A stretch of 11,534 nucleotides of DNA from an uncultured Dehalococcoidia bacterium. Lineage in GTDB: Bacteria > Chloroflexota > Dehalococcoidia > Lucifugimonadales > UBA3495. The notes under the pieces are model-generated. The model saw only the letters and a program-made list of their open reading frames with translations, did not search any database and was not told the DNA's origin. The stretch spans positions 1 through 11,534 of the forward strand of contig CATMOE010000086.1 in NCBI GenBank assembly GCA_950072105.1. The letters run 5' to 3'. Position numbers and translations under genes: made by a program. Positions 1 to 11,534 of this stretch are shown here, piece by piece; position 1 is the first letter of the stretch; every line of letters starts with the position of its first letter.

Positions 1-573
1 CCTGCTATCACTCCTCGTCATCTTTTGTCCCTGGGGATGGTGTCGATCCTTGTGTGGGGCGAGACGGGTGATTCGGCGTTGGCCGGTTATGAAGACCTGG
101 CCGAGGCAAGCGCGAATCTTGACCTGCCGATCGTGAAACGGCTCGAGACCGTAAGGGGCAATGGCGAGACGCGGGTAGACCTGGACAGGGTTGAGGCGTC
201 GGTGCTGGGATTCGATGTCATCTCGTTCAGGGCCGATTTCGGCGGCGTCGAGACGGCAATCACGATGGACCCGATCGCTATAGACGACCCGGGCGCAGAT
301 GATGACCCACCGCCTGAGCCGTACTTCAAGCGCTTCAGCGTGGACGTTTTCGCCGTGCCGAATATTGGCGCGGAGCGGTACATATTCCAATTCCAGCTTC
401 CAAACACATGGCTAGCTGAGCACGAAATGGATCCAATGAAGGTCCGGGTCTGGACGAAGTCTCAGGAGTGGGCGCCTCTAGAGACATTCCACATCACCGA
501 CGAAGACGGGATATCTAACTTCCTCGGCTTTTCTCCGAAGGCCGGCGAGTTCGCTACCGGGGCTTTGCCGTAA
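1..573 (+). CDS. PGF-pre-PGF-like domain protein (possibly 5'-partial, putative secreted or surface protein)
   Basis: Frame is open from base 1 to TAA at 571-573. The C-terminal pattern F-x-L-P-x-x-W-L-x-E-H-x-M-D-P...W-x-P-L-E-T...D-E-D-G...F-S-P-x-x-x-x-F-A-T-G resembles my recollection of the PGF-pre-PGF domain consensus. There is a short hydrophobic N-terminal stretch. Judged by eye, no search run. Confidence 0.5.
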   Translation, partial: PAITPRHLLSLGMVSILVWGETGDSALAGYEDLAEASANLDLPIVKRLETVRGNGETRVDLDRVEASVLGFDVISFRADFGGVETAITMDPIAIDDPGADDDPPPEPYFKRFSVDVFAVPNIGAERYIFQFQLPNTWLAEHEMDPMKVRVWTKSQEWAPLETFHITDEDGISNFLGFSPKAGEFATGALP

Positions 574-779
574 GCGATGCCCCCTCGGGTCTCTTCTCCT
601 GACAAGAACTAGGGTCGCACCACGCTTCCGTCGGCACGACGCGGCGCGGACCACGCCCCGCGGCAACGCTAGTTCCGCCGGCCCCGCCCTCTCTCGGGGC
701 CACGCTCGCTGCGATCAGGCGGCCACCGCCGCCTCGCGCGATTCCCACTGGCACACCTTCCCCAAATGCGTGAAAAATC

Positions 780-1322
780 TTGCTGAGATTCCTTCGGGAC
801 AGGAGCACGGGGAAGACCGAGAAGGCGGTCGAGAAGACTCGGAGCGCCTGGCGCGGTCACCTATCTTCAATCTTCGGCGGCGGTCAGATCGACGACTCGG
901 TTTGGGACGAAATGGAAGAACTGCTCGTTTCGGCTGATGTGGGCATGGCGCCCTCCAGCCTGCTCGTGGATAGATCGAAGGAACGAGTCAAGAGCGACGG
1001 GGCTTCGTCGACAGTGGCGGCTATCGAGGCACTCAAGGACGAGATGGTCGACCTCCTGAGCCTTGACCGCGACGCCGCTCTTCTGGAACCGTCCGATGGT
1101 CCGCTCGCGATCCTCATGATCGGTGTAAACGGTGCCGGGAAGACGACGAGCATCGCCAAGCTGGTCCATCTGTTTCGCCAGCGGGGGAGTAGCGTCGTCA
1201 TAGGGGCCGCCGACACGTTTCGCGCCGCCGCCGTCGAACAGTTGGAAGTCTGGGCCCGACGGGTCGACGCGGACTTCGTCAGAGCGCGGCCCGGGTCTGA
1301 CCCGGCCGCCGTGGTGTTCGAC
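780..1322 (+). pseudogene. ftsY: FtsY N domain and first half of the G domain (truncated)
   Basis: N-domain motif EMEELLVSADVG, G1 GVNGAGKTTSIAKL, DTFRAAAVEQL and GSDPAAVVFD are present. The G3 DTAGR and G4 TKxD motifs are absent. Confidence 0.9.
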
Positions 1323-1976
1323 CTGCCGGACTTCCAGGTGGACGGCGAGATGATCCGAATGCGGGCCGCCGATGATCTGGCGGGTTGTGCCAGCATACTA
1401 GCGTCGCTGTCCGAATTGTCGGCACAAACACCGCCTGGGGACGTTTACGGAGTGTTCACCCGCGCCGAGGAAGTTGGTCTGATGGGCGCAAGGCTGTTGG
1501 CGGAGTCGGGCCTCTTGCCCAAGCAGACGTTGGTTGTGTCTTTGGAGTCCAGCCGCACCCTGCCCGGAGCAGAGCAAGGCAGCGGCCCGGTCATACGCGT
1601 TGGGGACGCTGGCATGACCTTTAACGCCGACGCTGAATCGGTATTGCTCAAGGCCAGAGAGACCCTGCAACTCCAAGAGGGGGGCTTCCGGGTGCAGCGG
1701 CAACTGATGAGCGGGGGCGTTTGCGAAGCCAGCGCCTTTGCCTTGTTCGGCTACCGCACCACGGGTATAGCTTTCCCATTGGGCAATTATCATAACGGAG
1801 CGCCCGACGGGACGATCCAAGCCGAGTACATCCACGTCGAAGACTTCCTTGGCGGAGTCCGGCTAATCGTGGAAGCAGCCCGGCAGATGCCTGAAAAGAA
1901 CAACATTGCTTTCAAGCAGAGACTAAGCCAGGTGCCTGATGACGTGAGGGAGAGGCTTGGCCGCAAACTAACTTAG
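780..1976 (+). CDS. Chimeric ORF: truncated FtsY (SRP receptor) fused in frame to the C-terminal part of an M20/M28/M42-type Zn peptidase
   Basis: Single uninterrupted 398-aa frame. aa 1-181 are FtsY-like and aa 182-398 are peptidase-like (see the two sub-features). Confidence 0.85.
   Translation: MLRFLRDRSTGKTEKAVEKTRSAWRGHLSSIFGGGQIDDSVWDEMEELLVSADVGMAPSSLLVDRSKERVKSDGASSTVAAIEALKDEMVDLLSLDRDAALLEPSDGPLAILMIGVNGAGKTTSIAKLVHLFRQRGSSVVIGAADTFRAAAVEQLEVWARRVDADFVRARPGSDPAAVVFDLPDFQVDGEMIRMRAADDLAGCASILASLSELSAQTPPGDVYGVFTRAEEVGLMGARLLAESGLLPKQTLVVSLESSRTLPGAEQGSGPVIRVGDAGMTFNADAESVLLKARETLQLQEGGFRVQRQLMSGGVCEASAFALFGYRTTGIAFPLGNYHNGAPDGTIQAEYIHVEDFLGGVRLIVEAARQMPEKNNIAFKQRLSQVPDDVRERLGRKLT
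1311..1976 (+). pseudogene. C-terminal part of an M20/M28/M42-family metallohydrolase (N-terminus missing)
   Basis: RAADDLAG (metal-binding Asp), FTRAEEVGLMGA (EE motif), VSLESS, GGVCEA and LGNYHN (final His) are present. The N-terminal HxD motif is absent. Confidence 0.8.
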
Positions 1977-1995
1977 CTTAGTCTGGCCGGCCTAG

Positions 1996-3027
1996 CTAGA
2001 CACCAACCACCCGCACCCGGTGGTTATTGCTGTCGGCTATGTAGATATTGCCTTGGGCGTCCACGTCCGCGCCGTGGGGACGGTCCATCCCCGCGTTCAC
2101 AGCGTCTCCGCCATCCCCTTCTCCGCCCTTATGACCGCCAGCCACGGTGGTGACGATTCCGGTGGAGACATCTATCTTGCGTATGGCGTGGTTCTCGGTG
2201 TCTACCACCACGATGTTATCCTGGGCGTCGCACCGGATGGCTTTGGGTCCGTTCCAGGTGGATGCCAGCGCGGGTCCACCGTCGCCGGAATAGCCCTTTT
2301 CGCCGGTCCCCGCGAAGGTTGACATGATTCCGTTGGCGTCTATCTTCCGGACCCCGTGGCCCTCACGCTCGCAGACGTAGGTGTTGCCCTTGCTGTCCAT
2401 GCAAACGGCCCTGGAACCGAAAAAGCTGGCTTGGGCCGCGGGACTTCCGTCGCCGGCCCGGACTTTTTCACCATTTCCAGCGAAAGTGGTGATGATGCCG
2501 GTTGCCAGGTCCAAGCGGCGTATTCTCTGATCCTGGATGTCGGCGATGAGCAATCCGCCCTTACCGTCAAGGAAAGCGTCGTTGGGCTCTCTCAGCTGGG
2601 CCTCGTTGCCGGGGCCGCCGTCGCCGCTGTATCCCGGCTCTCCGGTGCCGGCCACGGTGGTGATTATCCCGGTGGCGGCTGCGATCTTGCGAACGGCGGC
2701 GTTAAGCCTGTCGACGATGTAGATGTCGCCGTTGGTGTCGACGCACAGGGAATATATCTGGTTGACCGTCGCTTGCAGCGCGGGGCCCCTGTCGCCGGAA
2801 TACCCCTCGGCCCCCGTACCCACAACGGTGGTAATCACGCCGGTGGTAGCGTCGACGCGGCGGACGGTGTGGCCCTTGGCCTGACCAAAATACATGTTTC
2901 CTTGCTGATCGAAGTCGCACATGAAGGGGTCATTGATCAACGCCCACTCAGCCAGCCCGCCGTCGCCGCTATAACCGGGCTCGCCGGTACCGGCGACGGT
3001 CTGAATGATGCCTTTGGTGATGTTCAT
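1996..3027 (-). CDS. NHL-repeat six-bladed beta-propeller protein
   Basis: Six roughly 56-aa repeats with TvAGtGexGYSGDGGxA motifs and NIYIADSNNHRVR-type strands. AAGGGG RBS upstream of the ATG. No signal peptide. Confidence 0.92.
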   Translation of the reverse strand: MNITKGIIQTVAGTGEPGYSGDGGLAEWALINDPFMCDFDQQGNMYFGQAKGHTVRRVDATTGVITTVVGTGAEGYSGDRGPALQATVNQIYSLCVDTNGDIYIVDRLNAAVRKIAAATGIITTVAGTGEPGYSGDGGPGNEAQLREPNDAFLDGKGGLLIADIQDQRIRRLDLATGIITTFAGNGEKVRAGDGSPAAQASFFGSRAVCMDSKGNTYVCEREGHGVRKIDANGIMSTFAGTGEKGYSGDGGPALASTWNGPKAIRCDAQDNIVVVDTENHAIRKIDVSTGIVTTVAGGHKGGEGDGGDAVNAGMDRPHGADVDAQGNIYIADSNNHRVRVVGV

Positions 3028-3062
3028 GTTTTCCCCTTGAGTGACGATGGATTGGTGTGGCG

Positions 3063-3100
3063 GGGGGAATCCCCCTCGGTCCCCCTTTACGAAAGGGGGA
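3063..3100. repeat. Double GC-rich palindrome (REP-like or terminator-like hairpin)
   Basis: GGGGG-AAT-CCCCC at 3063-3075, then TCCCCCTTT-ACG-AAAGGGGGA at 3080-3100 (9-bp perfect stem). Confidence 0.6.
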
Positions 3101-3131
3101 AGATAGGCGTATTGGCTTCAAAGAATTGGTA

Positions 3132-4069
<938 letters not shown>

Positions 4070-4090
4070 TATCGCTCCTTCGTCGCCAGT

Positions 4091-4227
4091 TGTCAGCAAT
4101 CAGCCTTCAGCGCTCAGCGAACCATTACCCCCTATCTCTCGCGGCTAAGGCGAGTCAGATCCCAAAACGGGGTTCACGCCTCTAAATTGGGAGGGGGCTG
4201 AAAGCTGATTGCTGTTCGCTGATCGCT
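4091..4227. repeat. Inverted degenerate heptamer arrays flanking a 78-bp spacer
   Basis: TGTCAGC AATCAGC CTTCAGC GCTCAGC (4091-4118) and GCTGAAA GCTGATT GCTGTTC GCTGATC GCT (4197-4227). Confidence 0.85.
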
Positions 4228-4231
4228 CCGG

Positions 4232-4657
4232 TCAGGCCGAGAGGCCCAGGGCCTGCAAGCCCACTTTGGCAATGGCTTCATCGTCCTCGGCGGCCAGCCC
4301 GCTGACTCCGATGCCGCCCAAAATCGCCCCAGAACTTGGGTGCAGTACGGTCACGCCCCCCTGAACGGCGGCCAGCATGGGGTCTCCCATCTCGGCCACG
4401 GTACGGCCCTGGCTGGCCATTCGGGCGGCATAGTCCTTGGAATCCTGGCCGGAGATAGCGCAGGTGTAGGCCTTACGCATAGCCATGCGCTGGGGACCCT
4501 TTCGGCACCGGTCCATCCGGGCGAAATCCATGATATCGCCATTGTCGTCGACGATGGCGATGGCGACGGGATGGGCTAGATCTTGGGTGGCTTTATCCAG
4601 CATTGCTTCCATGGCGCTTCGTGTCTGGTCCAAGCTGAGCATAGGCTTGTCGTACAT
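4232..4657 (-). CDS. GlcG/HbpS family heme-binding protein (DUF336)
   Basis: PVAIAIVDDNG, FARMD, AMRKAYT, GGV and GGIGVSGLAAEDDEAIA are the family motifs. Confidence 0.9.
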   Translation of the reverse strand: MYDKPMLSLDQTRSAMEAMLDKATQDLAHPVAIAIVDDNGDIMDFARMDRCRKGPQRMAMRKAYTCAISGQDSKDYAARMASQGRTVAEMGDPMLAAVQGGVTVLHPSSGAILGGIGVSGLAAEDDEAIAKVGLQALGLSA

Positions 4658-4686
4658 GAGAAATCCCCTGTAGGCAGGATTGGGTA

Positions 4687-4715
4687 ATTCTACACTTGGG
4701 GGCTATGGGGGGCAA
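4687..4715 (-). promoter_or_regulatory. Sigma70-type promoter for the GlcG-like gene (possibly GlcG-deacetylase-NHL operon)
   Basis: Minus strand reads TTGCCC-N17-TAGAAT, about 30 nt upstream of the ATG. Confidence 0.6.
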
Positions 4716-4754
4716 GGGAAGCGAAGGAGGGAGGGGATGTCTAACCGAGAAAGG

Positions 4755-4961
4755 CTATCGGGGCGCCGCTGATACTTGTTGGGACGGGCACTTGACGTCC
4801 CCGAAGGAACAAAAGACACAGCAGTCGTTCGCGTTGGGACGCAGAACGGTATGGCAGTTGGCGCATTCGTGGAAGAACTGGCATGCGTCAGTAGGCATCT
4901 CTAAGTCTTCCGAGAAGCCGCAATGTGGGCATGTCAGTTTGGAATCCTTGGTAGGTTGCAT
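4755..4961 (-). CDS. GDCCVxC-domain small Cys-rich protein
   Basis: LTCPHCG...MPTDACQFFHECANCHTVLRP-x-x-NDCCVFCSFGDVKCP matches the family pattern. Confidence 0.88.
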   Translation of the reverse strand: MQPTKDSKLTCPHCGFSEDLEMPTDACQFFHECANCHTVLRPNANDCCVFCSFGDVKCPSQQVSAAPR

Positions 4962-5041
4962 GAGATTTCCCTTTCCGGATGCTAGACGAGGCTACTCGCC
5001 CGGTGCCGGGTGATGGTTGTGACCCACCAAGTTGGATGCCC

Positions 5042-5971
5042 CTAGCCGAGGAGGGATTCGGCTTTCTCGAACATCCCCGCGGGTGCCAGGCCGGGGAAGC
5101 GGTCCGGGTACATGGCTTCGGCCAGTCCTTCCATAACGTCGATAACTCTGGGACCGTGGCGGCTAGGGATGCGGCCGTCGAACAGGAAGACTTGTTCCTG
5201 TTGTACCGCCGATAGCGTGGTCCAATCAGGTAGAGAGGTCAGCCATCCGGATGTTTCCGCGGATATCCGGGACGGCTCGAAGGCGCAGGGCATGACCATC
5301 AAGTATTCAGGCTGGTAGTCCAGAACCTCCCGCCATTGAATCTCGCGGGATTTGCCCCATTTTTCGGCCAGTCCCTCCAGGCCTCCGGCCAGCTCCACCA
5401 GTTCGGGGACCCATTGCCCGGTGTTGCGTAGCGGTTCCAGCCAGTCGACACAGAAGACCCTGGGCCGAAGCTCGATGTCTTGGAGTCCGCCGGTCACGTG
5501 GTCCATCCGGCGGCGCAAATCATCCACCAAGTCTTGTGCTCGCTGGGGAACCTGGGCCGCCTGGCCGACGTTTAAGATATTCTGGAAGATGTCATCCAAT
5601 CCGGCGGGCCGCACGGTAATTATTTCCGGCTGATAGTCTAAGACCTTGGCGGCGGTCTCGAATACTGATCCACTGCCGATGGCGCAAACTTCGCATAATT
5701 CCTGGGTGATAATCAGGTCCGGCTGGAGCTCTCGAAGCAAGTCGCCATCGATCCAGTAAAGGGGGTTATTGTTGGTTCGGGCCTGCTGGATGATAGCGTC
5801 TATCTCCGAGCTTTCCAGGTGGCGGATATTCCTCAAGCTACGGCTGACCACCGGCTTTTCGCCGACCGTCTCCGGGTAGTCGCAGGTATGGGACACGCCC
5901 ACCAACTGGTCTTCCAGACCCAGGGCGCACACCATTTCGGTGGCGCTGGGAAGCAACGAGCATATGCGCAT
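5042..5971 (-). CDS. BtuF-like cobalamin/Fe-siderophore substrate-binding protein (helical-backbone family)
   Basis: MRICSLLPSATEMVCALG, LVGVSHTCDYP, PDLIITQELCEVCA, GQWVPELVELAGG and SRHGPRV. ATG at 5971 has GAGG upstream. Confidence 0.88.
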   Translation of the reverse strand: MRICSLLPSATEMVCALGLEDQLVGVSHTCDYPETVGEKPVVSRSLRNIRHLESSEIDAIIQQARTNNNPLYWIDGDLLRELQPDLIITQELCEVCAIGSGSVFETAAKVLDYQPEIITVRPAGLDDIFQNILNVGQAAQVPQRAQDLVDDLRRRMDHVTGGLQDIELRPRVFCVDWLEPLRNTGQWVPELVELAGGLEGLAEKWGKSREIQWREVLDYQPEYLMVMPCAFEPSRISAETSGWLTSLPDWTTLSAVQQEQVFLFDGRIPSRHGPRVIDVMEGLAEAMYPDRFPGLAPAGMFEKAESLLG

Positions 5972-5999
5972 CAACTAGGCCTCTTCAAGTGATGGAGCC

Positions 6000-6028
6000 A
6001 GTATAGGCGGCATCACCGAGCCTATCAA
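6000..6028 (-). promoter_or_regulatory. Sigma70-type promoter for the BtuF-like gene
   Basis: Minus strand reads TTGATA-N17-TATACT. Confidence 0.7.
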
Positions 6029-6040
6029 GGACAAGCAAGC

Positions 6041-6061
6041 GATCAGCTTTCAGTTGTCAGC
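6041..6061. repeat. Degenerate heptamer array (3 copies)
   Basis: GATCAGC TTTCAGT TGTCAGC, located between two divergent promoters. Confidence 0.7.
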
Positions 6062-6122
6062 CTGGCCGTGTCGCAAAGTCAAAAGGGAAACCGAAATGCT
6101 CATAGCCTGCGCTACTACGTCG

Positions 6123-6151
6123 TTGAGGGCGTTGATGGCCCGTGCTAGAAT
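6123..6151 (+). promoter_or_regulatory. Sigma70-type promoter for folD-queA
   Basis: TTGAGG-N17-TAGAAT, with an extended -10 TG at 6143-6144. Confidence 0.6.
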
Positions 6152-6180
6152 TGGCATGGCAAAATGGGGGAGATTCGTTT

Positions 6181-7071
6181 TTGGTAAAAATACTGGACGG
6201 GCGGACACTGGCCAAAGAAATCCGCGCCGAAGTGGCGGTGGGTGTGGCCGAATTGCTCCAGAAACACCAGGTCAATCCAGGCCTGGCCGCAGTGCTGGTT
6301 GGCGACGACCCGGCGTCGGCTATCTACGTCCGCAATAAGCGCAGAGCCTGCGACGAAGTCGGCATGTTCAGCGAGACATTTACTCTGCCGTATATGGCGA
6401 CACAGGCGGCGCTGATAGATAAATTGCAGGAACTGAATGCCGACCATCGCTTCCACGGCATCCTGGTCCAGCTACCGCTACCGACCCACTTCGACGAATA
6501 TGCCGTGATTGAGACTTTGCTTCCCCAAAAGGACGTGGATGGTCTGCACCCTTATAACGTGGGAAAGCTGACCCAGGGCCGACCCGACTACATTCCCGGC
6601 ACGCCGGCGGGTATACAGCAGTTGTTGGTGCGCAACGGATACGACCCCGAGGGAAAAAACGTCGTCATCTGCGGCCGCAGCAATATCGTGGGTAAGCCCC
6701 TGGCCAACCTATTGATGAATCGCCGGCCGTGGTCGAACGCCACCGTCACCGTGTGCCATACCCGTACTAAGAACCTCTCGGAAATCACTTCGCAAGCCGA
6801 CATTCTGGTGGCGGCGATGGGCCAGCCGTTGGGTATAACCGCCGATATGGTCAAGGAAGGGGCGGTGGTCGTCGACGTGGGCATCAACCGGGTGGTGGAC
6901 ACCGACCGTAAACAAGGCTACCGCCTGGTAGGAGACGTTGATTTCGAGGCAGTGTCCGAAAAGGTCGAAGCCATCACTCCGGTACCAGGTGGCGTGGGTC
7001 CAATGACTATCGCCATGCTCCTCGTCAACGCTCTAACCGCTGCTAGGCTGACGATGGAAAACGAGGAATAG
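6181..7071 (+). CDS. folD: Bifunctional methylenetetrahydrofolate dehydrogenase/cyclohydrolase
   Basis: ILDGRTLA, PGLAAVLVGDDPASAIYVRNK, GILVQLPLP, KDVDGLHP, GRSNIVGKP and ITPVPGGVGPMTIAMLL. TTG at 6181 has a GGGGGAG RBS; the ORF-track start at 6142 overlaps the predicted promoter. Confidence 0.97.
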   Translation: MVKILDGRTLAKEIRAEVAVGVAELLQKHQVNPGLAAVLVGDDPASAIYVRNKRRACDEVGMFSETFTLPYMATQAALIDKLQELNADHRFHGILVQLPLPTHFDEYAVIETLLPQKDVDGLHPYNVGKLTQGRPDYIPGTPAGIQQLLVRNGYDPEGKNVVICGRSNIVGKPLANLLMNRRPWSNATVTVCHTRTKNLSEITSQADILVAAMGQPLGITADMVKEGAVVVDVGINRVVDTDRKQGYRLVGDVDFEAVSEKVEAITPVPGGVGPMTIAMLLVNALTAARLTMENEE

Positions 7072-7073
7072 CG

Positions 7074-7134
7074 GCTATCAGCATTCAGCCTTCAGGAACG
7101 GACGAATAACGCTGAAAGCTGACCGCTGAAAGCT
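7074..7134. repeat. Inverted degenerate heptamer arrays with a 14-bp loop
   Basis: TATCAGC ATTCAGC CTTCAGG (7076-7096), then GCTGAAA GCTGACC GCTGAAA GCT (7111-7134). Confidence 0.88.
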
Positions 7135-7143
7135 CTCCACCCC

Positions 7144-8202
7144 ATGCGTACCAGCGACTTCGACTATCATCTTCCCCAGGACCTTATCGCCCAGACTCCC
7201 ATTGAGCCCAGGGACGCTTCTCGCTTATTGGTGTTGGATCGGGGAACCGGGCGTCTTCAGCACAAGCATTTCCATCAGATCATTGAGTACCTCCGTGCGG
7301 GCGACGTCATGGTGTTCAACCAGAGCCGGGTCATCCCCGCCAGGCTGCGAGGGCGGCGGACCGACACCGGCGGCAAGGTGGAATTTCTGCTATTGAAGCG
7401 GGAGAGTCCGCGGGTGTGGCAAGCTTTGGCCCGGCCGGGTCGCCGCCTAAAAGCGGGAGCGACCGTGACCTTGGAGCAGGCCGGGCACATCAGAGTTGAA
7501 TCAACACCCGCCGCCTTCGACGTGGAAGTGTTGGATTCTGGTGAGGACGGAATCAAAACTATCCGGTTGCTCAACGAGGACGATATAGACCGCTTTGGTG
7601 TGATGCCCCTTCCGCCTTACATCCATGACAGGCTGGAGGACCCGGAGCGATACCAGACGGTGTACGCGCGTCAACCCGGCAGCGCCGCGGCGCCTACCGC
7701 CGGCCTGCATTTTACTCAAGACCTGCTGGACGGCCTAGCGTCGCACGGGGTTGAATCGACGTTCGTCACGCTGCACGTTGGACTGGACACGTTCCGCCCC
7801 GTACAGGAAGAAGATCCTAGCCAGCACCGGATACACACCGAATACTACGAGCTAAGCCAGGAAACCGCTGACGTGTTAAACCGCGCCCGGAGCGAGGGCC
7901 GCCGCATAATCGCCGTGGGGACGACCTCGGTGCGCGTGCTGGAGCACACGGCCCAAGAGATGGAACGACAAGGCCGGGAGCAGCTGGCCGAGTGTCAGGG
8001 CCAGGCCGATCTATTCATCATGCCGGGCCACCGGTTTCGTATGGTGGACGCCATGGTGACCAACTTCCACCTGCCCCGCTCCACCCTGCTGATGCTGGTC
8101 TCGGCCTTCGCCAACCGGGAAACAATATTGGCCGCCTACCAAGCCGCCATTCGAGAACGGTATAGGTTCTACAGCTTTGGGGATGCGATGTTTATAATTT
8201 AG
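7144..8202 (+). CDS. queA: S-adenosylmethionine:tRNA ribosyltransferase-isomerase
   Basis: SDFDYHLP..LIAQTP, RDASRLLVL, PLPPYI, RYQTVYA, AAPTAGLHF, TLHVGLDTF, AVGTTSVR, TNFHLPRSTL and YRFYSFGDAM. Confidence 0.98.
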   Translation: MRTSDFDYHLPQDLIAQTPIEPRDASRLLVLDRGTGRLQHKHFHQIIEYLRAGDVMVFNQSRVIPARLRGRRTDTGGKVEFLLLKRESPRVWQALARPGRRLKAGATVTLEQAGHIRVESTPAAFDVEVLDSGEDGIKTIRLLNEDDIDRFGVMPLPPYIHDRLEDPERYQTVYARQPGSAAAPTAGLHFTQDLLDGLASHGVESTFVTLHVGLDTFRPVQEEDPSQHRIHTEYYELSQETADVLNRARSEGRRIIAVGTTSVRVLEHTAQEMERQGREQLAECQGQADLFIMPGHRFRMVDAMVTNFHLPRSTLLMLVSAFANRETILAAYQAAIRERYRFYSFGDAMFII

Positions 8203-8238
8203 CAAATAGGCAGGGGCAGATGTACTGGAGGTGAGCCG

Positions 8239-8460
8239 ATGAAGGTCTACACCTATTCTGAGGCAAGGCAGAGTCTTGCTTCCGTCCTCGAAGAAGCTCA
8301 TAGGGAATGGGCGGTTGGGATTCGGCGCAAAGATGGGCGGGTGTTTGTCATCCGGCCGGAGCCTTCCAAAGGGTCCCCTCTGGACATAAAGGGTATGGAT
8401 CTGGGTGTGGCCACAGATGAGATTGTCGGATTCATTAGGGAAAGCCGTCGCGAGCCGTAG
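8239..8460 (+). CDS. Phd/YefM-family type II antitoxin
   Basis: N-terminal MKVYTYSEARQSLASVLEEA...VGIRRKDGRVFVI pattern, 73 aa, strong GGAGGTG RBS. Confidence 0.85.
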   Translation: MKVYTYSEARQSLASVLEEAHREWAVGIRRKDGRVFVIRPEPSKGSPLDIKGMDLGVATDEIVGFIRESRREP

Positions 8461-8594
8461 ATCCCCAGCCGGGCCGCCGAGGCGCTGGAGAACGTCAACG
8501 CCGGCCATGAGAGGAAGCTGAATAATCTGGCTGAATCGCCGGACGGGTACAGCTAGTTAAAAGCAGAGGTCACGTAGGTGTGGCCAGCGGCCCT

Positions 8595-8951
8595 CTACGG
8601 CAACTGCAGCAGTTGCAAAATATTCCCGTCGGGGTCTTTTAGGGTGGCGATCCAGCCTCCCCAGTGTTCCATTTCCGGGGGGCGGATGAATTCTACGTCT
8701 TGGTCCGCCAGGCGCTGACAGATGGCGTGGATGTCCTGAACGCCTAGGTGGGGCATCACCCGGTAAGGGTCGCGGGATGTTCCTTCCACTTCCCCGTGCA
8801 GGCCGATGTTGAAGCGGATGTCTCCCAGCTGGAAGGCGATGAAGTCTTCGTGGCGGGAATGTAGAGGCAGTTGCAACAGGTCGTGGTAGAAGTGGAACAT
8901 CCGCTCCAGGTCATCGGTCCAGATGGTTATTCCTACAACGCCGGTAATCAT
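8595..8951 (-). CDS. VOC/glyoxalase family protein
   Basis: DDLERMFHFYHDLL, VQDIHAICQRL..GVEF-like segment and WGGWIATLKDPDGNILQL. Confidence 0.9.
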   Translation of the reverse strand: MITGVVGITIWTDDLERMFHFYHDLLQLPLHSRHEDFIAFQLGDIRFNIGLHGEVEGTSRDPYRVMPHLGVQDIHAICQRLADQDVEFIRPPEMEHWGGWIATLKDPDGNILQLLQLP

Positions 8952-8985
8952 TTTAGCGATCAGCGCTCAGATTTCAGCGATCAGC
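8951..8985. repeat. Degenerate heptamer array (5 copies) abutting the VOC start codon
   Basis: TTTTAGC GATCAGC GCTCAGA TTTCAGC GATCAGC. Confidence 0.85.
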
Positions 8986-9031
8986 CGGTTGGGCCGCGAG
9001 TATCGGGGCAGTTGGAGTCGTTCGCTAACGG

Positions 9032-9478
9032 CTATGCGGTCTGGGCGGCTCGTTTGGCGGCGGCGCAACTGGGGCACCACCCGTAGAAGTCTACCCGCTG
9101 CCAAGCGACTTCGAATTGGGACTCCTTGGAGATGCGATTTCTAAGGCGAAGGACCGCGTCCTGCCCGGTGTCGGTGTCGATGACGGTCTCGCATTGGATG
9201 CAGACCAGATTGACGTGGGGTTCCATGTTTGCTTCGTACCGGGACATCTTCTGGAAGGGCAGTTCCTGAATCAGGCCGCTCCTCTGCAGAACACCTAGTG
9301 TCGAGTAGATAGTGGCTAGGGTCATGGACGGGAAATGGTCTTTCACCCGCTCGAATATCTGTTGGACCGATGGATGGTCGGTGGAGTTGAGTACCGCCTC
9401 GGCGATGGCGAGACGTTGCGGCGTTACCCGGACTTCCCACTCCCTCAATCGCTCCACTAGCTCTTGTTGGGTCAACAT
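9032..9478 (-). CDS. Fur family transcriptional regulator, PerR-like
   Basis: RVTPQRLAI, DHPS, SMTLATIYSTL, HVNLVCIQC and FYGWCPSC (two CxxC Zn motifs). GGAG RBS. Confidence 0.92.
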   Translation of the reverse strand: MLTQQELVERLREWEVRVTPQRLAIAEAVLNSTDHPSVQQIFERVKDHFPSMTLATIYSTLGVLQRSGLIQELPFQKMSRYEANMEPHVNLVCIQCETVIDTDTGQDAVLRLRNRISKESQFEVAWQRVDFYGWCPSCAAAKRAAQTA

Positions 9479-9558
9479 AAATACTCCAAGGCACTTGGCC
9501 TAGTAGTAGTGAATAGCGTGACTACGGGATACTTCCAAGTCAGGCCGAACTGCTCTTC

Positions 9559-9587
9559 ACTATAACGGGAATCCATGGACCTGGCAA
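9559..9587 (-). promoter_or_regulatory. Sigma70-type promoter for the Fur/PerR-VOC genes
   Basis: Minus strand reads TTGCCA-N17-TATAGT. Confidence 0.6.
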
Positions 9588-9708
9588 GCGAAATGCCGCA
9601 TCCCATGGTCGTAATACGTGCATGAGGTGAATGGATTCGAGCAACACTCAAAGAGCTGGCAACGCTTCTTTAAGTTCGTGGCCTGGTGGCGTAGAGGCAA
9701 CGGTTACC

Positions 9709-9737
9709 TTGAAACCCAATGCCGCCTGGGATATGCT
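9709..9737 (+). promoter_or_regulatory. Sigma70-type promoter for tRNA-Ser
   Basis: TTGAAA-N17-TATGCT, 10 nt upstream of the tRNA. Confidence 0.65.
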
Positions 9738-9747
9738 GGTTGATTGT

Positions 9748-9837
9748 GGAGAGATGGCTGAGCGGACGAAAGCGCCGGTCTCGAAAACCGGTATACGGGC
9801 GACTGTATCGTGGGTTCGAATCCCACTCTCTCCGCCA
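9748..9837 (+). tRNA. tRNA-Ser (anticodon CGA)
   Basis: GGAGAGA/TCTCTCC acceptor stem, G discriminator plus encoded CCA, anticodon arm CCGGT-CT-CGA-AA-ACCGG (CGA at 9782-9784), long variable arm, GGTTCGAATCC T arm. Confidence 0.98.
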
Positions 9838-9906
9838 GTTTTGAGGCTACTCTTTCCTGTAATGCGTTCACTCCGATGGTTGAAGTTGCGGACAAGATTC
9901 AATGTG

Positions 9907-10533
9907 TTAGCGCAGGAGTGCCGCCAGTTGCTGTTTGACCGCCGGCCACTCTGCATCCAAGATCGAAAACACTGCCGAATCCCGGATAGTGCCGTCGGTT
10001 GCCACTCGATCTCCCCGTACCACGCCATCTAACTGCGCGCCCAACCGCTCAATGGCGTTGCGTGAGCGTTCATTGCGGGCGTCGGTTTGTAGACGAACCC
10101 GATGAACCAGCCAAGTTTCAAAGGCGTGAGTTAGCATGAGCAGCTTGGCCTCCGTGTTTATACCCGTCCGCTGAGCATCAGGCCCAAGCCAAGTCGCGCC
10201 GATCTCCACCACGTCCGGCAATCGCTTGCCACGTTGCCGCGGGTTCCCGGCGGGCCAGTCCCAGAACTGCACGTTAAGAAACCGGGTTGAACCGACGACG
10301 TGTTCAGCCTTGCGATCGATCGTCGCGAATGGAAGTATGGTCCCTGAATCTTTACCGGCCAATGCTGTCTCTACATATAGACGCATGGCAGCCGTATCGT
10401 CTGGAACCGTTGTAAGAGTGAACGTTTCTCGAGATCCACTTGCAGCCTGAACCAAACCAGGGACATGGTCCAGGGAAAGGGGTTCGAGCCGAACATGGCG
10501 TCCTTGAAGTGTGACGGGGTCTAACATATCCAT
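9907..10533 (-). CDS. GNAT family N-acetyltransferase (RimJ/RimL-like)
   Basis: PVTLQGRHVRLEPL, VVGSTRF, EIGATWL..AQRTGINTEAKLLML.HAFE, TDARNERSRNAIERLGA and DGTIRDSAVFSIL. Confidence 0.93.
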   Translation of the reverse strand: MDMLDPVTLQGRHVRLEPLSLDHVPGLVQAASGSRETFTLTTVPDDTAAMRLYVETALAGKDSGTILPFATIDRKAEHVVGSTRFLNVQFWDWPAGNPRQRGKRLPDVVEIGATWLGPDAQRTGINTEAKLLMLTHAFETWLVHRVRLQTDARNERSRNAIERLGAQLDGVVRGDRVATDGTIRDSAVFSILDAEWPAVKQQLAALLR

Positions 10534-10727
10534 AAGCCCCTAGTCTAAGGTGTAGCTTAGAACTCTACCGCAGCCAGGGCAGACGGACGGTCCCGAGCCG
10601 CGGAACGGCCCCACGCAGGTCGGGCAATCGTCCTCGTAGCGAGCATGCTTCGCTTACTGGGCCGAACCCTTGTTACGCTCCGAGTCGGCTAGGCTACGGT
10701 TTTGACTAGGCCCTAGATACAGCTAAC

Positions 10728-11447
10728 CTAGAAATCGCGCTGGCCGAACATCCGGATGCCCAGGGGCGGGAGGACGACCAGTGGGAAGAAGAGGGCAACC
10801 AGGAAGGGGAAGTGGAGGGACCACTCGAACTCTCCTTGCAGCAAGGCTGGTATACGACCCAGGACCCCCGACGGGGAGAACCCATCGGCCTGGATGGTCA
10901 ATAGCATCGTGATGGCGGTATACCACAATATGTAAATCATCGCCAAAGAGCCGGGGGTATTGGTGACAACGGCGCTGAAGGTAACGCTCAGGAAAACCAG
11001 CACGGTAAAGAGCAGCCCGGTGTACATAAGAGCAATGAGAATCCCGCTGGAAGCCAAGTCGTTGGAGAGTCCGCCGCCCATCATGGCGAAAGCGACCGGA
11101 GTGATGACGAGCAAGGACATGCCCAGTACGGTAAGAGCCCGGGCGGTCAGCAGGGACAGCACGAACTGGGCGGGGGTGACCCCGTGGCTGATGATGGAAT
11201 CGCCCAAGGTCCTGGGGTCGATGCCGCCTGAGGCGGAGCTGATAATCATGACCATGAAGCTCCCCAGAGCCACGTACAGCAGCAGGAACCAGCCCAATAT
11301 GAACGAGGTGCTTTCCTGGTCGAAGGTCGCTGCGAATACTACGCCTGCCAAGCCTCCCGCGCCGCTGATAGCCAGCCACATCCACACCGTCCAAGAACGC
11401 ATCATGGCCGCCAGGTCTTCTTCCAGTAAGATCATGAACGGGGTCAT
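10728..11447 (-). CDS. ABC-2 type transporter permease
   Basis: About six hydrophobic segments and a TLGDSIISHGVTPAQFVLS loop resembling the ABC-2 permease motif. Translationally coupled (ATGA) to an upstream ORF. Confidence 0.7.
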   Translation of the reverse strand: MTPFMILLEEDLAAMMRSWTVWMWLAISGAGGLAGVVFAATFDQESTSFILGWFLLLYVALGSFMVMIISSASGGIDPRTLGDSIISHGVTPAQFVLSLLTARALTVLGMSLLVITPVAFAMMGGGLSNDLASSGILIALMYTGLLFTVLVFLSVTFSAVVTNTPGSLAMIYILWYTAITMLLTIQADGFSPSGVLGRIPALLQGEFEWSLHFPFLVALFFPLVVLPPLGIRMFGQRDF

Positions 11448-11534
11448 ACCTTCTGCTCCTCCGCCACGTCGTGGGCTCCGTTCGCTTGCCCCTCCGCCAC
11501 GTCGTGGGCTCCGTTCGCTTGCCCCTCCGCCACG
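11444..11534 (-). CDS. 3' end of the upstream gene (partial), possibly the ABC ATP-binding subunit
   Basis: Open frame reads VAEGQANGAHD VAEGQANGAHD VAEEQKV*, with its TGA overlapping the permease ATG. Product inferred from context only. Confidence 0.55.
   Translation of the reverse strand, partial: VAEGQANGAHDVAEGQANGAHDVAEEQKV
11458..11534. repeat. 33-bp perfect tandem repeat (at least 2.3 copies, runs off the window)
   Basis: CCTCCGCCACGTCGTGGGCTCCGTTCGCTTGCC at 11458-11490 and 11491-11523, with a partial copy at 11524-11534. Confidence 0.95.

Follow-up and report, generated by a model that had tools for sequence, protein, structure and literature searches.

An in-frame FtsY-peptidase fusion in a deposited Dehalococcoidia genome is almost certainly a patchwork at a contig end

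Introduction

An open reading frame (ORF) that begins as the SRP receptor GTPase FtsY and ends as a metallopeptidase may be a new gene fusion, or it may have come about only in the handling and assembly of the DNA. Which of these applies to one such ORF, deposited with the genome of an uncultured Dehalococcoidia bacterium, is the question addressed here. We analysed the window, by which we mean the whole stretch of 11,534 nucleotides. It is the entire contig C86 of genome G000 (4.08 Mb in 164 contigs, 92% complete, 6% contamination), and the ORF lies 0.8-2 kb from the contig end.

An earlier note on this DNA, made from the sequence alone, had called the ORF a probable chimera with one junction at VVFD. 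The call is borne out by donors of different species, by native genes that are intact elsewhere in the genome and by a fusion that does not recur. The junction also stands, as one of about four joins within 2.2 kb, the others having been missed. The contig end is almost certainly a patchwork of at least four different marine bacteria, joined at identical stretches of about 20 bases (Table 1). We are as good as certain that the fusion is an artefact, made by an assembly hop or in the library; a real allele is very improbable.

Table 1. Segments, joins and chimeric reading frames of the contig (positions in the window).
Feature	Position	Strand	Description
Segment A0	1-661		Contig tip: 3' end of a hypothetical gene (1-573) and downstream DNA
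Join 1	641-661		21-nt overlap of A0 and A1
Segment A1	641-1247	+	5' part of a Chloroflexota-type ftsY (N domain, P-loop) with the DNA upstream of it; right end 1235 to about 1258
Chimeric ORF	780-1976	+	398 aa; two donors for FtsY residues 1-181, a third for residues 175-398 (M42-type peptidase)
Segment B / join 2	1215-1321	+	107 nt of Acidobacteriota-type ftsY; the overlap with A1 lies in the conserved TFRAAAVEQ motif
Join 3 (reported fusion point)	1302-1321	+	20-nt exact overlap of Acidobacteriota-type ftsY and UBA1141-type peptidase
Segment C	1302-2210	+	3' part of M42-type peptidase gene, intergenic DNA, 3' end of NHL-repeat gene; UBA1141-like Dehalococcoidia
Chimeric NHL-repeat ORF	1996-3027	-	Native to residue 267, foreign C-terminus
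Join 4	2211-2226		Inside NHL-repeat gene; 16 nt unlike either flanking donor
Segment D	2227-11534		Native sequence of this genome

The reading frame and its domains

The ORF has a TTG start and remains open, without a stop, across all 398 codons. Pfam assigns SRP54_N (PF02881) to residues 28-89 (40.1 bits against 22.4), the SRP54 GTPase domain (PF00448) to residues 110-181 and Peptidase_M42 (PF05343) to residues 178-339 (57.4 against a gathering threshold of 23.2). GTPase and peptidase are both cut inside their profiles, of which only positions 3-74 of 196 and 114-276 of 292 are present; this agrees with the earlier description of two domains severed in mid-fold. A motif scan located GxNGxGKT at residue 115, DTFRAAA at 145 and VVFD at 178, followed by the peptidase motifs RAADD at 195, AEE at 229 and NYHN at 336. 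Pfam and the scan thus both place FtsY up to residue 181 and the C-terminal part of a peptidase beyond it, where the earlier note had put them.

Set beside FtsY (TIGR00064; PF02881 and PF00448), the ORF has the N domain, the P-loop and DTFRAAA in common. Unlike FtsY, it stops at position 152 of the 279 in the TIGR00064 profile (match from position 2; 130 bits, below the cut-off of 260.7), combines two ftsY genes and lacks DTAGR and [TS]KxDG in the motif scan, both of which are present in the donor-type proteins P0241 and P0258. Set beside M42 (TET/FrvX-like) metallo-aminopeptidases, it is 98% identical over residues 175-398 to an intact parent, P0246, and retains RAADD, AEE and NYHN. Unlike that parent, it is without the first 142 residues, including HMDH at residue 69, and the scan of the ORF found no N-terminal HxDH. 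The HMDH of the parent aligns with AHVD of 1vho, which, with 2cf4 and 1y0r, is among its distant solved relatives.

We take DTAGR to be G3, [TS]KxD to be G4 and GxNGxGKT to be the P-loop G1 of FtsY, while HxD presumably supplies the N-terminal metal ligands of M42 peptidases. The loss of G3, G4 and HxD had been reported before, and the scan is in accord. To judge by these defining motifs, the predicted product is neither FtsY nor an M42 peptidase; a fused protein, if made, would be without G3 and G4 and without the first metal ligands.

Donors of the two halves

The FtsY half had been read as a single gene. It consists instead of parts of two ftsY genes of different phyla, joined at about 1215-1247. 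Two intact FtsYs resemble the first part, P0121 at 96 of 100 positions over ORF residues 46-145 and P0241 at 129 of 145 in the region of residues 1-156. Both diverge after residue 156, agree at only 11-12 of the 25 positions in residues 157-181 and read PGAVAFD where the ORF has PAAVVFD. Over the same 25 residues, locus L058 matches throughout (25/25), and its DNA, which holds an intact ftsY, is identical to the window over 1215-1321 (107/107) and unlike it on both sides. The named members of the L058 protein cluster are FtsYs of Acidobacteriota, and the same is true of the neighbouring riboflavin synthase. When the 28 nt to the left of join 3 were searched in a metagenome collection, four matches were obtained, all four continuing as intact ftsY. 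GC content is 0.71 in segment B as against 0.59-0.63 in the other segments.

For the donor of segment A1 we infer a Chloroflexota type from sequence comparison; FtsYs named as SAR202 or Chloroflexi stand at about 50%. No close DNA match to the donors of A0 or A1 occurs among the listed hits of 400 genomes of the class; the unpublished genome G282 enters only into that total and carries no conclusion. The hypothetical ORF of A0 (forward strand, open at its 5' end) has no Pfam match and has ESM Atlas neighbours at 0.89-0.91. By eye it may resemble archaeal PGF-pre-PGF surface-protein domains.

The best match of the C-terminal half in the genome collection is L065, from Dehalococcoidia bacterium UBA1141 (98% over residues 175-398). 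It differs from window 1302-2210 at 20 positions in 909 nt (889/909, 97.8%) and upstream of 1302 continues into normal peptidase, the whole being an intact protein of 366 aa. This parent, P0246, agrees with the ORF at 213 of 217 residues over 182-398. Thirteen of 296 candidate stretches in the genome collection were confirmed, and none of the 13 extends into the FtsY part. A protein search among cluster representatives of 218-697 aa gave 98% identity over 56% of the query for the best 12, and an SRP54 domain in none of the best 120 of 7986 matches; as the window's own protein stands there under a shorter representative, this result by itself falls short of establishing absence. PxxVVFDL is the usual sequence at this position in the peptidase family; peptidase homologues do carry VVFDL at the junction, as had been suspected, and the two halves, compared separately, have different best relatives.

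Nine of the 20 differences from L065 cluster at 1346-1412. A fifth join was considered there and rejected, the natural protein P0007 having the same amino-acid variants, and the cluster may represent strain variation. As a separate matter, P0246 bears an NCBI label of Gemmatimonadota although it stands in a Dehalococcoidia record, possibly through a binning error in that other record.

Overlaps at the joins

The two genes that meet at join 3 share exactly 20 nt, coding PAAVVFD (residues 175-181) in the same frame. That the junction motif occurs in both parent genes had been correctly anticipated, at a length of 12 nt rather than the actual 20. The other overlaps measure 21 nt at join 1 and at least 21 nt, from 1215, at join 2, and none was resolved at join 4, whose 16 nt found no holder in 202 genomes of the family (best match 90% over 78 nt).

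The frame survives join 3 because the shared word is read in one and the same frame in either gene. Among the isolated 20-mers that unrelated ORFs of this genome have in common, 61 of 123 are on the same strand and in frame, as are 3351 of 6784 16-mers; these counts rest on crude ORF calls and on a flank-likeness filter that spared opposite-strand matches. Since half of the chance-shared 20-mers here are in frame, the open frame is weak evidence for a real fusion. By a simple calculation, about 5,000 to 500,000 21-mers would match by chance in a pool of 1e8 to 1e9 bases.

Native genes and the continuation of the contig

An intact ftsY and an intact peptidase, which the earlier note had proposed looking for, are both present elsewhere in the assembly. 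The native ftsY, on contig C1, scores 360 with TIGR00064 (cut-off 260.7), and its DNA is 95.4% (G001) and 84.5% identical to that of two genomes of the same genus; contig C63 carries a full native peptidase with the HMDH motif. At the protein level, the native FtsY is only 42% identical to the N-terminal half of the ORF and the native peptidase 72% identical to the C-terminal half, and thus neither half derives from the native copies. A search of the assembly for the lost remainders of both cut genes found none: the junction region has no exact match of at least 17 nt on other contigs and no near-identical copy by blastn.

These identities decide against a deletion or rearrangement within one genome that joined its own ftsY and peptidase, one of three origins proposed earlier. 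Such a deletion would indeed use a short repeat like the one shared at the join. However, the native FtsY is only 42% identical and the DNA left of the join is of Acidobacteriota type; moreover, in genome G439, whose peptidase locus matches 1302-2295 at 96%, FtsY is 40% identical and reads PGAVAYD at that place. We therefore reject this origin on donor identity and give it practically no credence, since the pieces trace to different species and to two phyla.

The point at which the native sequence begins can be followed in the relatives. In bins of 60 nt, the window is nearer to G004, of another genus, than to G001, of the same genus, up to about 2200, past which 50-60 of 60 positions agree with G001. 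From 3170, window and G001 are 91-92% identical and share the same gene order. C63 matches G001 at 90.9% up to its own end, and G001 then runs directly into segment D. A common NHL protein (P0290, on 54 contigs) equals the NHL ORF of the window in residues 1-267; the end of C63 codes for its residues 301-344 with 44/44 agreement. The chimeric NHL protein is deposited on this contig only. The gene order of G001 and P0290 together imply that the genome runs from C63 through about 100 missing bases into C86 near 2227; the end of C63 (1-140) and the native part of C86 (2227 onward) are probably neighbours.

Independent metagenomes and recurrence

Contigs, as distinct from reads, of four of the 23 matching runs, from four studies, were aligned to 1-3000 (best run with 0.68 of the sampled words). 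Among the matches listed for these runs, no contig piece bridges 1302-1321, and loose ends of the donors fall at exactly 1215, 1302 and 1321. A contig of 3129 bp and depth 99 in run X1 has 0 differences over 1215-1321 and loose ends on both sides. Matches in X2, X15 and X17 cover 1302-2214 with native peptidase upstream; X15 and X17 match segment C only, with nothing left of 1302 among the matches listed. At join 1, the match to A0 stops at 661 in X1 (depth 39-46) and in X2, with other letters beyond, and another X1 contig begins matching at 641 after 68 unlike letters. In support of a native segment D, an X2 contig has 11 differences, all within 2191-2226. In these independent data the parents continue differently, and intact, on both sides.

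The segments also differ in abundance across samples. For A0, A1, B and C, contig depths, a rough measure, are 39-46, 5.7, 99 and about 1 in X1, and about 4.7, 4.1-4.6, 26 and 91 in X2. As A0 and A1 are of similar depth in X2, join 1 rests on the loose ends and on X1.

No relative among 39 has a match that starts before residue 154 and ends after 202. Of 302 compared proteins, 270 match the ORF; both sides are covered by a single one, that of the window itself. The fused protein has been deposited in NCBI and ENA, and its exact sequence occurs on one contig only (11534 bp); its cluster has two further members, both peptidase fragments. The same fusion in independent genomes, which in the earlier note would have spoken for a real gene, was found in none of the 39 relatives, 13 loci or four metagenome matches. 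The papers found on FtsY, aminopeptidase and gene fusion together describe no such fusion, as far as titles and the opening lines of abstracts tell. A separate protein of 423 aa on two contigs (P0214) has an FtsY N-half followed by UvrC-like domains (PF08459, PF14520) and may be another chimeric FtsY with a different break.

These results bear most directly on the possibility of a real mosaic, in which repeated short-homology recombination (natural transformation) in a SAR202-type cell produced an FtsY-N::peptidase-C allele beside the intact ftsY. The ORF is open over 398 codons, and the intact gene on C1 would make such an allele dispensable. However, about four recent events would be required in a space of 2.2 kb, drawing on three or more foreign species from two phyla, and with one piece free of mutation. 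The native peptidase and NHL tail remain on C63, where they fit the relative's gene order; the join is in 0/39 relatives, 0/4 metagenome matches and 0/4 aligned runs among the matches listed; and the open frame is the expected result of chance. A natural fusion would have both halves from the host lineage, joined at domain boundaries, whereas this ORF joins pieces of three foreign donors, and both domains are cut inside their profiles. We consider the mosaic highly improbable. If true, it would derive from two other Chloroflexota and an Acidobacterium and would be cross-phylum, exon-like shuffling at 20-nt homologies, caught in the act. Almost certainly, no cell makes the fused protein.

Origin of the fusion

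We think it very likely that the fusion was made by the assembler, through hops in its graph. Where contigs of this assembly overlap exactly end to end, the overlap is 77 nt in 33 of 37 cases, from which we infer an assembler of SPAdes type with a k series of 21 to 77. PMC10914622 describes metaSPAdes and MEGAHIT as leaving end sequences of length maxK, gives their k lists (21,33,55,77,99 and 21,29,39,59,79,99, respectively) and discusses chimeric joins and regions shared across genomes.

The native contig would have broken inside the NHL-repeat gene, about 100 nt short of C63, and the de Bruijn path would have left it for the DNA of co-occurring organisms, hopping at words of about 21 identical bases. 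The first hop would lead into the NHL and peptidase genes of a UBA1141-like relative. From there, the shared PAAVVFD codons would give access to an Acidobacteriota-type ftsY, and the conserved TFRAAAVEQ codons in turn to one of Chloroflexota type; the last hop would lead into the fifth segment at 641-661. The in-frame outcome would be the commonest one for chance-shared words in coding DNA. Paths found at small k are carried into the graphs of larger k, and overlaps of 21, at least 21 and 20 nt fit hops at the smallest k.

Two observations speak against hops in the graph alone. Among the relatives examined, the overlap at join 3 comes to 20 nt, one base short of a 21-mer graph vertex, and the 16 nt of join 4 match neither flanking donor and have no holder in 202 genomes of the family. 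For a hop at join 3, either a one-base strain difference at 1301 or 1322 or a bridging chimeric read would be required, and neither was seen.

A chimera formed in the library, by template switching at short shared stretches during PCR or whole-genome amplification and kept at a low-coverage tip, needs no strain difference for an overlap of 20 nt, and the 16 nt at 2211-2226 imply that a clean graph hop does not account for every join. It would still be an artefact. According to PMC1855051, priming at 2-21 complementary nt accounts for more than 70% of chimeric MDA junctions, and the present joins are alike in using short complementarity, up to 21 nt. However, 85% of the chimeras in that paper are inversions, and most events are intramolecular, confined to one genome and to distances of 10 kb, whereas the joins here, about four in 2.2 kb, connect different species. 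Moreover, the overlaps that could be measured, three in all, span 20-21 nt or slightly more, which puts them at the top of the 2-21 range and at the smallest k implied by the 77-nt ends. A library origin, the main rival, is in our view unlikely, and it may account for single joins. Of the three routes originally offered, then, mis-assembly by graph hop is favoured over amplification chimerism, short of proof.

The contig resembles known chimeric contigs of short-read de Bruijn metagenome assembly in that its joins fall near a contig end, at exact stretches common to co-occurring organisms whose depths differ and whose parent genes are intact elsewhere. Unlike usual assembly chimeras, it has stretches of 20-21 nt, about four of them in 2.2 kb, spans two phyla and yields one clean in-frame ORF that has entered protein collections.

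Implications

Biologically the fusion carries no weight, the gene being almost certainly non-existent. Its significance is cautionary: a representative genome that is 92% complete contains a 2.2-kb cross-phylum patchwork that reads as an in-frame fusion and has been deposited as a protein. With its pieces traced, it illustrates how a false in-frame fusion can come to stand in public databases, and screens for new fusions should check both the join and whether it recurs. In C86, trimming should remove bases 1 to about 2226; the remainder probably joins C63.

Other features of the window

Several features of the native segment were noted in passing. A short dispersed intergenic repeat at 3050-3150, REP-like by appearance, recurs in incomplete form on many contigs, both in this genome and in its relatives. 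A perfect 7-bp tandem repeat of 10 copies lies at 3132-3201, between the NHL gene and a polysaccharide-deacetylase-like gene, and G004 has similar arrays at several places. Between a Fur-family gene and a GNAT gene stands a tRNA-Ser(CGA) (9748-9837, forward strand). The other contig end (11454-11534) holds a 33-bp tandem repeat of 2.5 copies and matches the start of contig C20, a likely neighbour, at 96%.
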